64,000 nucleotides of DNA from Patescibacteria group bacterium (GTDB taxonomy: Bacteria; Patescibacteriota; Doudnabacteria; UBA920). Below, one piece after another: positions 2,993-34,216 of the stretch. The DNA is taken from the NCBI GenBank assembly GCA_013387205.1, contig WARV01000010.1, positions 765-64,764 of the forward strand, given 5' to 3'. Positions within the stretch are counted from its first letter, which is position 1; every line of letters begins with the position of its first letter. The notes beneath the pieces were generated by a model. It was given only the letters and a program-made list of their open reading frames with translations. It ran no database searches and was not told the origin of the DNA. A program made the translations under genes and the position numbers.

Positions 2993-5065
2993 CTAAATAT
3001 TTTCTTTTACTATTTTTATAATTGCATTCTTGTCTATTTCTTCGTAAGCCAAAAGCTCGTCTGGCTTGCCGCTCTTGGGTTCTTTTTTTACGGCAAGGGA
3101 TACCACTTTTACCTCTTCTCCTGGCAAGGAGAAGGTGCCGAAGGCGGATGAGGTCGAATCATTACTGCTAGTTCGACCTCTCTGTCCCTGCGGGACATCT
3201 CCCCTCGCCAGGGGAGAAGGAACACAAAGAGCGGAAAGCACCGCCTCGCCGAGCCCGCCTTCTAAGTGATGGTCTTCAACTGTAATTATTGCTTTGGTTT
3301 CCAGCGCGGCTTTTTTAATTGTTTCTATATCAATTGGCTTAATGCTGTATAGATCTATCACGCGGATGTTAATATTTTCTTTTTGCAGTTCCTCGTAAGC
3401 AGACAGCGCTTCATGCAAAGTTATGCCGGCACCAATTACCGTGATTTGATCAGTATCCGATGATCTTAGAGTACATGCCCCCCCGATCCTAAATTCATGA
3501 TGAATTAATTTTTGTTCATTTTTGTCATTTTCGTCGTTTTCGTCGTTTTTGTCATTTGTGTACAATATTTTCGTTTCTTTTCTGGTTGTCCTAATATATA
3601 CCAAGCCGTCGTGCCCTGCTGCGGCTGCCACTAATTTTTCGGTTGAAACGGCATCAGAAGGATACAACACAACCGATCCGATTAGCGAACGGAACATGGC
3701 AATATCTTCAAGGCCCATTTGGCTTACCCCATCTTCGCCAATAGACACTCCTGCGTGAGAGCCGCAAACTTTGATATTGCTATGGGCATACTGGCTCATG
3801 CGAACCTGGTCGTAAGCACGGGACAAAAACGCGGCAAAAGTGGACACGAACGGGATTTTGCCGCGGCGGGCAAAACCCATAGCGGCTCCAACCATATTTT
3901 GCTCGGCAATATACATTTCAAAAAACCTGTCCGGCGCGACTTTCTTAAAAGCATCGGAATAAGTTGAATTGGAAACTTCGGCATCAAGCACCACCATATT
4001 CGGATAAGCATCCGCTAAATTTGCCAAAGCATTGCCATAAGCTTTTCTTGTCGCTGTCGGCTTTTCGTAATTTGAAAAATTAATATCACCTGCTGCAATT
4101 CTCCCCTCCTGTAAAGGAGGGGTGGCTGCGTTAGCAGACGGGGTGGTAGATAATTGTTCTGGAATTGCCACCTGACCAACAATATTTTTATCAACATCCC
4201 CTAATTCTTGCAACGCGCGATTTAAATCCTCGGCCGACAACGGCTTTCCATGCCATCCGTCCTTGTCTTCCAAAAACGACACACCTTTGCCTTTTACAGT
4301 TTTTGCGATTATCATTGTAGGACGACCGTCCTGTAGCGGGCGGATAGTATCCGCCCCTACAGCCATTTCCAAAGCCTTATTTATCTGCTCAAAATCATGC
4401 CCGTCAATAACCATGGTTTTCCAGCCAAAAGACTCAACCCGCTTTTGGTAGGTGTCTGTGTCCCAACCAAGCATGGTTTCCCCTCTCTGGCCCAAACGAT
4501 TGCAATCCAAAATTCCTATCAAATTATTCAGATGGTAATGCGAAGCAGCCTGCAAAGCTTCCCACACGCTGCCTTCGGCCATTTCACTGTCGCCAAGCAT
4601 GACGTAAGTTTTATATGATAATTTATCAAGTTTGGCATTAAGCGCCATGCCAAGCCCGACCGATAAACCTTGGCCTAAAGATCCTGTAGGCACTTCGGTA
4701 TACGGAAAAGCCAAAGTCGGATGCCCCTCCAAACGCGAACCAAACTTTCGCAGTGTCATCAGTTCTTCTGGATTGATTGCGCTCTGTAGCGGGCGGATAC
4801 TATCCGCCCCTACACCTGCTGTTTTTCCTGCTACCGCATATAGTGAATACAAAACAGGCGCTGCATGCCCTTTGGACAGAATAAACCGGTCGTTATTTGC
4901 ATACTCGGGATTATCTAAATCTGCCTTGAAAAATCCATTAAAGAATAAAGCGGTCAATAAATCTGCCGCTGACATAGCCGAAGTCGGATGCCCGCTGCCT
5001 GCTTTCGTGGTAGAAGTTAAAGAATAGTAACGGATTAGCTTGGCTAATTTTTGCAAGTCTTGCAT
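2993..5065 (-). CDS. tkt: transketolase
   Basis: N-terminal SGHPTSAMSAADL and GHAAP thiamine-diphosphate motifs; pyrimidine-binding and C-terminal domains present. Carries several in-frame inserts (see findings). Confidence 0.9.
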   Translation of the reverse strand: MQDLQKLAKLIRYYSLTSTTKAGSGHPTSAMSAADLLTALFFNGFFKADLDNPEYANNDRFILSKGHAAPVLYSLYAVAGKTAGVGADSIRPLQSAINPEELMTLRKFGSRLEGHPTLAFPYTEVPTGSLGQGLSVGLGMALNAKLDKLSYKTYVMLGDSEMAEGSVWEALQAASHYHLNNLIGILDCNRLGQRGETMLGWDTDTYQKRVESFGWKTMVIDGHDFEQINKALEMAVGADTIRPLQDGRPTMIIAKTVKGKGVSFLEDKDGWHGKPLSAEDLNRALQELGDVDKNIVGQVAIPEQLSTTPSANAATPPLQEGRIAAGDINFSNYEKPTATRKAYGNALANLADAYPNMVVLDAEVSNSTYSDAFKKVAPDRFFEMYIAEQNMVGAAMGFARRGKIPFVSTFAAFLSRAYDQVRMSQYAHSNIKVCGSHAGVSIGEDGVSQMGLEDIAMFRSLIGSVVLYPSDAVSTEKLVAAAAGHDGLVYIRTTRKETKILYTNDKNDENDENDKNEQKLIHHEFRIGGACTLRSSDTDQITVIGAGITLHEALSAYEELQKENINIRVIDLYSIKPIDIETIKKAALETKAIITVEDHHLEGGLGEAVLSALCVPSPLARGDVPQGQRGRTSSNDSTSSAFGTFSLPGEEVKVVSLAVKKEPKSGKPDELLAYEEIDKNAIIKIVKENI
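4331..4362. repeat. 32 bp GC-rich palindromic mini-element inserted in frame in tkt (copy 1)
   Basis: Sequence ctgtagcgggcggatagtatccgcccctacag; encodes VGADTIRPLQDGR within transketolase. Confidence 0.7.
4784..4814. repeat. 32 bp GC-rich palindromic mini-element inserted in frame in tkt (copy 2)
   Basis: Sequence ctgtagcgggcggatactatccgcccctaca, nearly identical to copy 1 and in the same orientation; encodes GVGADSIRPLQSA. Confidence 0.7.
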
Positions 5066-32860: not shown

Positions 32861-33487
32861 CTAATAGTCAATGCCTTTTTGCGCCAAAATCCCCTCGTAA
32901 TACGGATGTTTGACCATTTTCATTTCCGTGACTAAATCGCAAGCCTTGATAATTTTAGGATACTTGTTATGCCCGGTTATTACCAAATGCAGCATCTCGG
33001 GCTTTATTGCAATAAGGTCCAAAATATCCCTTTCTTCAATAAGGCCGACTTCCAAAGCCGAAATCAATTCATCTAAAATTAAAACCTGATACTGGCCGGA
33101 TAACATAATCTCACGAGCGCGATTAAGGCCGCTCAAAGCTTCTTTGATATGGACTTCTTTTTCTTTTTTATCACCTAAAATTCCGACAAAGCCTGCACCG
33201 CTCTGTTCGTTGTCAATTTTTCCCAAACTGCCTCGCATGGACACTTGGTTGAAGAAATTAATCTCATTGGATATTGGCCACTCCCCGCTTTGGCGCTTTT
33301 CTCCGGCTTCCAGCTCCTTGGCTTTGACGAACTGAAGGATAAAAACATTCATTCCTGCCCCGCTGGCCCTAACTGCCACCCCCATCGCCGCACTAGTTTT
33401 TCCCTTGCCGTCACCAATATAACAAATGACCAAACCTTTTTTGGCTACCACCGGCTTGTCTTTTTTCGGTTTTTTATATTTGGGCAT
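32861..33487 (-). CDS. cobO: cob(I)yrinic acid a,c-diamide adenosyltransferase (CobA/CobO/BtuR family)
   Basis: P-loop-like GDGKGKTSAAMG; family-typical length with an insert. Confidence 0.75.
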   Translation of the reverse strand: MPKYKKPKKDKPVVAKKGLVICYIGDGKGKTSAAMGVAVRASGAGMNVFILQFVKAKELEAGEKRQSGEWPISNEINFFNQVSMRGSLGKIDNEQSGAGFVGILGDKKEKEVHIKEALSGLNRAREIMLSGQYQVLILDELISALEVGLIEERDILDLIAIKPEMLHLVITGHNKYPKIIKACDLVTEMKMVKHPYYEGILAQKGIDY

Positions 33488-33489
33488 AA

Positions 33490-33887
33490 TTGTGTCATCC
33501 CGACCGAAGCGGAGGGATCCCTTGTCTTACATTTTTATATGATATTCCAACTTAGGCTCAAGTCTGCCCATTTAGGATTTAATTTTTTTATTAAAAATTC
33601 TTTCTTTTTTCTATTCCATCTTTTCAACTGCCTTTCCCTTGCAATAGCTGAATTTACATCTGATGTTTGTTCAAAATAAACTAACTAATGGCAACAATAT
33701 TTTTTTGTAAAACCATCAGCCACGTTATTTTTATGTTGCCATACCCGATTTGCCAAATCATTAGTAACTCCTGTATACAAAGTACCGCTTTCACTGGCTA
33801 AAATATAAATATAATATTGGTAATCTTTCATAGTTACTCATTATTTTATACATTAAGGGATCCCTCCGCTTCGGTCGGGATGACACA
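33490..33887. mobile_element. 398 bp element: perfect 33 bp terminal inverted repeats flanking a GIY-YIG nuclease pseudogene
   Basis: Left TIR tgtgtcatcccgaccgaagcggagggatccctt (33490..33522) is the exact reverse complement of 33855..33887. The element abuts the cobO ATG and the upstream gene's terminator. Confidence 0.55.
33578..33829 (-). pseudogene. GIY-YIG nuclease family (UPF0213-like) gene with one in-frame TAG
   Basis: Hand translation gives MKDYQYYIYILASESGTLYTGVTNDLANRVWQHKNNVADGFTKKYCCH*LVYFEQTSDVNSAIARERQLKRWNRKKKEFLIKN. The GIY...YTG and R-x3-QHK motifs are intact. TAG is a genuine stop here, since groEL ends with TAG. Confidence 0.6.
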
Positions 33888-33949
33888 TAGGGCGGCAGCT
33901 GTTTTGCCTGCCGCCCATACATAATACACTATACGTTATTAAAAAAGAC

Positions 33950-34216
33950 CTACCGCTCTTGCATGGCAATCTCCGCTACCAATTTTTCTAAATCGGTATC
34001 GCGTCCTACAAACATCCATTGACCGCTCTCTTTCTTTAGCGCTATTTGCATATTGGGCATATTGGTAAACGGCACTTCTACCTGCTGTCCATAAATCTCT
34101 ACGAATGTTGATTTACCATCTTTATGGCCATCCTGCACGATAAACCGGTATCCCTTGGCTTCCAATTGCCTGCGTATTTCATTGGTTGAAATTTTTCTTT
34201 CGATTGAATTTTCCAT
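33950..34216 (-). CDS. hypothetical protein
   Basis: 88 aa ORF downstream of nrdJ; terminator hairpin gggcggcag-N9-ctgccgccc at 33891..33917. Confidence 0.35.
   Translation of the reverse strand: MENSIERKISTNEIRRQLEAKGYRFIVQDGHKDGKSTFVEIYGQQVEVPFTNMPNMQIALKKESGQWMFVGRDTDLEKLVAEIAMQER

Follow-up and report, generated by a model that had tools for sequence, protein, structure and literature searches.

A probable SRM-ssn-SRM unit with a decayed GIY-YIG nuclease gene at the cobO start in a Patescibacteria genome

The window, a 64-kb stretch of DNA from a Patescibacteria/CPR MAG, contains a short segment between a class II RNR gene and cobO in which a small nuclease gene is enclosed by two inverted repeats. 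The features of this locus are the following:

32861 to 33487, minus strand: cobO (ATP:corrinoid adenosyltransferase; Pfam PF02572, E=2e-52), the downstream neighbour of the unit.
33488 to 33490, minus strand: spacer of 3 nt between the unit and the cobO ATG, reading ATT in the gene sense, recognized from the sequence and from comparison with the empty site of locus L103.
33491 to 33523, plus strand: left putative SRM (Ssn-related motif), TGT-GTCATCCCGACCGAAGCGGAGGGATC-CCTT, a perfect inverted-repeat arm with a hairpin fold, its GTCAT end pointing outward to cobO.
33535 to 33831, minus strand: probable ssn-type single-domain GIY-YIG nuclease pseudogene, 98 codons plus TAA, recognized by translation and Pfam PF01541.
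33685 to 33687, minus strand: in-frame TAG at codon 49 of the GIY-YIG gene, where homologues have Lys (AAG).
33855 to 33887, sense on the minus strand: right putative SRM, identical to the left one, its GTCAT end pointing outward to the GC hairpin.
33890 to 33916, no strand: GC-rich hairpin GGGCGGCAG...CTGCCGCCC, 2 nt beyond the right SRM, outside the unit and marking the insertion site.

The stretch from the class II RNR gene to the GC hairpin also contains an ORF of 88 aa (33950-34216, minus strand) without a Pfam or NCBIfam match.

The repeat search returned two inverted arms (33491-33523 and 33855-33887), 331 nt apart, which are 33 nt long and 100% complementary, as had been claimed in the initial annotation; the unit that they bound spans 33491-33887 and measures 397 bp, one less than the 398 bp given there. 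When up to 3 mismatches were allowed, a 28-nt core sequence from the arm was located at two places in the 64-kb window, namely the two arms, with 0 expected in 100 dinucleotide shuffles, and no SRM or ssn copies beyond the unit's own were found in the window. The left arm begins 3 nt from the cobO start at 33487, in line with the distance originally reported, and transcription of cobO must either run through the unit or start out of it. The right end had been described as abutting the terminator of the previous gene. What lies there, 2 nt away, is the GC hairpin, which has a fold of about -31 kcal/mol (z about -3) and no T-run, and which was not called by the terminator scan. No target-site duplication is visible, since the flanks (...CATAAT / unit / TAGGGC...) show no direct repeat.

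The minus-strand ORF runs from the ATG at 33831 to the TAA at 33535 and comprises 98 sense-equivalent codons plus the stop, instead of the 83 codons counted previously, with TAG at 33687-33685 (codon 49) as its sole in-frame stop. With the TAG read as Lys, the product matches the Pfam GIY-YIG family (PF01541, E=3e-14, residues 5-77) and no second Pfam domain, while no NCBIfam model matches it. The residues Y9, Y19 and E66, corresponding to the catalytic Y6, Y17 and E64 of SsnA, are kept, which bears out the description of intact catalytic motifs interrupted by a single in-frame TAG. A search of 5.8 billion proteins yielded more than 3800 homologues, the best being 76% identical; no near-identical intact allele was among them, and metagenomes scanned for an allele with NAG in place of the TAG gave 0 matches. 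At codon 49 the aligned homologues have Lys, and more distant ones Met or Asp, but never a stop. Recoding of TAG as a sense codon was rejected, because TAG terminates 10 of the 34 long non-overlapping ORFs of the window. Since TAG is a genuine stop here and the homologues carry Lys at this position, the ssn copy of the window is a pseudogene; judging from the sequence, the change of AAG to TAG at codon 49 is the inactivating mutation and the copy is presumably dead, as the amber codon had been taken to indicate. The predicted product up to the TAG has 48 aa and lacks the metal-binding Glu66. The frame past the TAG is still open and conserved, and the lesion is therefore one substitution, probably recent, or a sequencing error.

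The gene had been linked to classic homing and selfish nucleases, and the arms had been read as TIRs that indicate recent mobility or a hairpin-forming insertion unit. Our analysis points instead to a member of the Ssn family of ssDNA nucleases, with arms that correspond to the SRM-type hairpin motif of the same family, an architecture that has already been published (Chenal et al., Nat Commun 2025; PMC11893778). SsnA of Neisseria meningitidis is a 94-aa single-domain GIY-YIG protein, which binds the hairpin repeat NTS (CGTCATTCCCGCGMAVGCGGGAATCYRG) solely as ssDNA and in one orientation, and nicks it a few nt upstream (PMC11893778). The characterized Ssn members, from Neisseria and Wolbachia, bind their motif in ssDNA only and nick a few nt 5' of GTCAT; members of the clade have no dsDNA activity, and SsnA does not bind RNA (PMC11893778). 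The SsnA residues mutated in that study were Y6, Y17 and E64. At least one SRM was reported near 71% of the Ssn homologues, with SRMs on both sides in 42% (PMC11893778). For the present work, the Ssn ssDNA nucleases were taken as the CDD clade cd10448 (GIY-YIG_unchar_3).

A tblastn search with the window protein detected one place in each of two N. gonorrhoeae chromosomes (E=8e-18 and 2e-17), where a 94-aa ORF with Tyr6, Tyr17 and Glu64 lies inside a cluster of NTS repeats. Based on its length, residue numbering and NTS context, this ORF is most probably the SsnA orthologue. According to BLASTP, it shares 48% identity with the window protein (E=1e-27), and Y9/Y19/E66 are aligned to Y6/Y17/E64. 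The two gonococcal records (NZ_CP119140.1, here L094, and NZ_CP119142.1) come from the plasmid collection; at 2.17 Mb they are evidently chromosomes mislabelled as plasmids, and they hold 12 annotated features only, the ssnA-like ORF being unannotated.

The 98-codon gene thus resembles the Ssn proteins in its size (about 94 aa in that family), in encoding a single domain without an additional DNA-binding one, and in its homology to SsnA, including the catalytic Y/Y/E. Searching the PDB with the window protein returned no SsnA structure and only the UPF0213 proteins 1zg2 and 1ywl (E=3e-6 and 4e-4). Proteins of the UPF0213/YhbQ/SLX1-like group are similar in size and fold family; however, they are far more distant than the Ssn clade and are not associated with SRM hairpins. 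A literature search on GIY-YIG proteins with TIRs, COG2827 or UPF0213 found nothing relevant.

Each arm folds as an imperfect hairpin, ATCCC-GA-CCG-AAG-CGG-A-GGGAT. Shuffled sequences reach similar folding energies (z of an arm -0.1 to -0.4), and a gathering scan of the whole window with Rfam returned two tRNAs only, with none at the arms. The layout of the arm is that of NTS and SRM, i.e. T-GTCAT, a palindromic stem, ATC and then C, and both arms carry the oriented hairpin (5' GTCAT, palindrome, 3' C) that flanks ssn genes. As in the Ssn/SsnA system, such TGTCAT-palindrome-ATC-C hairpins stand inverted on both sides of the gene and also occur as solo copies elsewhere in genomes. The published SRM string, HGTCWYN(0-2)YYVSBRHN(0-5)WNVSBRGN(0-2)RNCYNB, matches the Neisseria and Rhizobium copies but nothing in the window, the arm included, because the stem of the latter carries a GA/A bulge. 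The degenerate string is a search heuristic and not a definition.

Of 58 distinct motifs from other loci whose choice did not depend on the search pattern, 55 showed complementarity of the stem pair GTCAT[T/C]CC...GG[A/G]AT (Fisher p=8e-13), and the base at -1 of GTCAT was T in 127 of 139 cases; kinship of the copies inflates these figures, and the direction of both the stem covariation and the T preference is clear. The paired SRMs within other units mostly differ from each other, often by a compensatory change between ATTCC/GGAAT and ATCCC/GGGAT. The best-matching homologue, found in a Liptonbacteria MAG (L001), is flanked by TGTGTCATTCCGAGCGAG[stem-loop]CGAGTCGAGGAATCCCTTA and an inverted copy that is not identical. 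The 33/33 identity of the arms in the window is unusual, and suggests either youth or homogenization between the arms. With respect to variation of the motif, the left SRM of the ssn unit at L106:930-1170 contains an apparent insertion of about 200 nt between its stem halves (GTCATCCTGAA ... TTCAGGATAC), and loop insertions of 10-40 nt are also present in SRMs of L020 and L046. A hammerhead-like CUGAUGA in the SRM loop of L003 was judged to be a chance occurrence.

Based on the homology of the protein and the layout of the arms, the gene is assigned to the Ssn family and the arms to a variant SRM, and we consider it highly probable that the 397-bp segment is an SRM-ssn-SRM unit, in which a gene for a GIY-YIG protein of about 95 aa stands between inverted copies of a putative recognition hairpin. 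Elements of this kind have already been published (PMC11893778), and the unit upstream of cobO is a real but ordinary, decayed example. It differs from the Ssn/SsnA and NTS system of Neisseria in several respects. It belongs to a Patescibacteria/CPR MAG, and this group is not mentioned in the Ssn paper. The stem has the GA/A bulge, only two motif copies are present in 64 kb, the gene is inactivated by the TAG, and the GTCAT ends point away from the gene, in contrast to the inward-pointing NTS copies beside the gene in N. gonorrhoeae. The abundance of the family in Patescibacteria is new in the present analysis.

Copies of the arm motif also exist in other genomes. A motif scan for GTCATCCCGACCGNNNCGGAGGGATCC, with one genome per species, revealed 76 loci, gene-less pairs among them, in lineages of Patescibacteria as well as in Acidobacteriota, Chloroflexota, Clostridia, Nitrospirota, Planctomycetota and others; the condition under which the initial annotation would have been refuted, an old fixed feature with no other TIR copies anywhere, is thus not what was observed. 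An ssn-type gene lies within the locus in only about 10 of the 76, the remaining loci being solo copies, convergent gene-less pairs 12-124 nt apart, or tandem arrays. The outward-facing SRM(+)-ssn-SRM(-) arrangement was seen in 8 of the 23 ssn matches examined, including CPR MAGs and a Rhizobium plasmid, the motifs of which fit the published SRM pattern. In one Peribacteria MAG the motif is present on at least 8 contigs, alongside two ssn copies of about 73% DNA identity (L023 and L048), and in Peribacteria genomes the repeated segment runs about 55 nt past one SRM.

Two candidate signs of transposition were rejected. The one 'miniature' checked, L063 of Peribacteria, at first sight resembled a MITE that had transposed; it lies, however, at the orthologue of the locus that carries a full unit in a sister genome (L026), and derives from that unit by internal deletion, which speaks for long residence and decay in situ. 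The homologues P0091 and P0028, which occur as identical proteins on multiple contigs, do not represent several insertion sites, as the same locus had been recovered in several samples.

Some further arrangements were also noted in the course of these comparisons. Tandem arrays of SRMs in the same orientation, with no ssn in the locus, are present at L035:1766-2074, L062:3923-4354 and L076:7749-7999, the first of which (an Acidobacteriota MAG) has at least 4 copies with a period of 94 nt. In the Liptonbacteria MAG GCA_016194445.1, three small GIY-YIG genes lie within one heme-copper oxidase operon (L001:2900-5800), one between COX1 and COX3, one between COX3 and COX4 and one after UbiA; one of the three has an SRM pair, while the second gene (3960-4217) has another 18-nt inverted repeat, TTTAATCCCGTTAGAGAT, on both sides (94% complementary). 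Flanking motifs of their own are thus suggested for further subfamilies of small GIY-YIG proteins. On plasmid p1 of Planktothrix agardhii (L095:1370-1900), an ssn homologue with 60% identity is located between an MmeI-type restriction-modification gene and drmA (DISARM), in a defence-island context, and is followed by short tandem repeats with TGTCATTCTGAG.

The gene order RNR, cobO, DUF4430 and DUF6580 is found again in relatives that share 72-75% identity in cobO, with one or both of the genes downstream of cobO missing in some of them. Extra genes (DHFR and other ORFs) are found between RNR and cobO in L100 and L101, while in L103 RNR leads directly to the hairpin and cobO; the content of the RNR-cobO spacer is thus variable across the relatives. 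Sites without the unit, which the initial annotation had proposed to look for, were found in L103/L104 and in L105. In L103/L104 the order is GC hairpin-TAAAAATTT-ATG of cobO, compared with GC hairpin-TA-[397-bp unit]-ATT-ATG in the window, and in L105 the hairpin is present and the unit absent. When metagenomes were scanned for an empty site of the same species, with 0-30 nt between the hairpin and the start of cobO, 0 matches were obtained. Aligned with these loci, the unit is seen as extra DNA in a short A/T-rich spacer, of which the 3 nt at 33488-33490 would be a remnant, and its arrival by insertion is the probable explanation, drawn from relatives with cobO genes of only 72-75% identity.

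A different occupant is found at the same spot in L106 (cobO 72% identical), where an intact 95-aa ssn gene is present and the right SRM lies 2 nt from the cobO ATG. The L106 protein is 64% identical to that of the window, ranks about 120th among the homologues of the latter and has its own best matches elsewhere, and the SRMs of the L106 unit belong to a different type (GTCATCCTGAA...TTCAGGATCC). Upstream of cobO in L101, two SRMs of the L106 type form a pair without a gene. The GC-rich hairpin (GGCGGC...GCCGCC) is found at the equivalent position upstream of cobO in four lineages (window 33890-33916, L103:2960-2990, L105:1415-1437 and L106:925-950); it has no T-run, the spacers around it are otherwise AT-rich, and the ssn/SRM units adjoin it. 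Given that another ssn/SRM variant occupies the site in L106, the spacer is either a recurrent landing target or has long been occupied with turnover. Of the earlier reading, the view of the unit as extra DNA is supported relative to L103/L104 and L105; recent mobility is not supported as it was phrased, as L106 has another variant at the same place. The filled, empty and differently filled cobO sites, together with the gene-less SRM pairs of other genomes, are new here.

With respect to mechanism, the unit occupies the few A/T-rich bases that separate the start codon of cobO from the conserved GC hairpin. Because both motifs point outward with their GTCAT ends, nicks are predicted at about 33489/33490 in the top strand and at about 33888/33889 in the bottom strand, where they would coincide, to within 1-2 nt, with the limits of the perfect repeat and of the extra DNA; this coincidence in the outward arrangement is likewise new here. 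The gene-proximal NTS face inward in Neisseria, so that the outward geometry is not universal and the equation of nick sites with the ends of the unit is a tentative one. Spread may well begin with the nicking of hairpins in ssDNA by Ssn. As a hydrolytic nickase cannot join DNA, the host would have to complete the process, through replication or recombination that starts at the exposed 3'-OH ends or through recombination of SRM copies with one another. Any present-day action on the SRMs of the window would need an Ssn from elsewhere in the genome. Mobility of the unit is plausible, though not demonstrated, and no literature following up on Ssn mobility was found.

We would propose only tentatively that SRM-ssn-SRM units form a genuinely mobile class, which relies on a GIY-YIG single-strand nickase instead of a transposase and is copied to hairpin-adjacent A/T-rich spacers, with the cobO spacer as a recurrent landing site. 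In the outward-facing arrangement, which is common in CPR bacteria, each strand would be nicked just 5' of the unit, leaving 3'-OH ends on the flanks, and the host would then copy the unit elsewhere. The cobO spacer holds unrelated ssn/SRM variants in two lineages and a gene-less pair in a third, and is empty in two others.

A different account, which we regard as possible but doubtful, is that of an autonomous IS-like transposon, with the arms as true terminal inverted repeats and the GIY-YIG protein as a transposase that excises and reinserts the element. The layout of a gene between inverted repeats speaks for it, and was likened to an IS by the Ssn authors as well (PMC11893778). Several ssn-type genes per locus or genome in differing contexts (L001; L023 and L048 of the Peribacteria MAG), the gene-less pairs, the empty sites and the other variant at the same site in L106 agree with it too. 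To our knowledge, however, GIY-YIG enzymes are hydrolytic nickases, and we know of no strand-transfer chemistry in the superfamily. There is likewise no target-site duplication, the flanking SRMs of other units are usually not identical, the Peribacteria repeat reaches about 55 nt past one SRM, the L063 miniature arose by internal deletion in situ, and most SRM copies are solo. Among transposons, IS200/IS605 and REP/RAYT elements come close in having a small gene between hairpin motifs recognized as ssDNA, solo repeats and no target-site duplication. They differ in the enzyme, which is an HUH Y1 tyrosine transposase in their case and a hydrolytic GIY-YIG nickase in the unit; a search for an HUH/Y1 transposase (TnpA or RAYT) in the unit found none, the sole domain-bearing ORF being the GIY-YIG gene. 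Moreover, the hairpins of the window are inverted, with the cleavable copies on opposite strands, whereas LE and RE of IS200/IS605 are on the same strand.

It is similarly unlikely, though conceivable, that the locus is the remainder of a host-domesticated system as in Neisseria, in which Ssn and dispersed SRMs restrict or shape the integration of ssDNA in natural transformation, the copy of the window having been lost by mutation. A domesticated role, namely the restriction of incoming single-stranded DNA, has been shown experimentally in N. meningitidis (PMC11893778). Most SRMs in other genomes are not beside an ssn gene, and relatives have ComEC-type competence genes within a short distance (a few genes) of cobO. 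Against this account, the window has two SRMs only in 64 kb, both flanking the gene, compared with hundreds dispersed in Neisseria, and the gene is a pseudogene in a unit that relatives with conserved synteny lack.

A classic free-standing GIY-YIG homing endonuclease of the Seg/I-TevI type, which makes a double-strand break in the empty allele and is copied in by repair, is very improbable. The GIY-YIG catalytic domain, the selfish-looking intergenic position and the presence or absence between relatives are shared with I-TevI and SegA-G, but the window gene encodes 98 aa in one domain with no DNA-binding or linker domain, and it lies in a chromosomal intergenic spacer of the RNR-cobO string and not in an intron, intein or phage context. 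In addition, it is closest to the Ssn clade, whose members act on ssDNA and lack dsDNA activity, and its conserved flanking hairpin motifs are foreign to homing endonuclease genes. Equally improbable is a role at the RNA level, with the arms as REP-like stabilizing or attenuating hairpins of the RNR-cobO transcript and the nuclease gene incidental, since the stable folds of the arms and the GC hairpin and the position within a conserved operon-like gene string are outweighed by the lack of an Rfam match, by arm folding energies no better than those of shuffles, by conservation of the motif across phyla in sequence and not in structure alone, by its tie to ssn genes, and by the finding that SsnA does not bind RNA (PMC11893778).

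Returning to the SRM-ssn-SRM unit, the filled, empty and differently filled sites and the outward geometry bear on a question left open in the Ssn paper, that is, whether NTS-ssnA-NTS units are mobile. The same kinds of data are needed in order to understand how a hydrolytic ssDNA nickase could move such units. Our analysis also extends the Ssn/SRM pairs to the reduced genomes of Patescibacteria, and the new SRM variants may offer potential new specificities for ssDNA-cutting tools.
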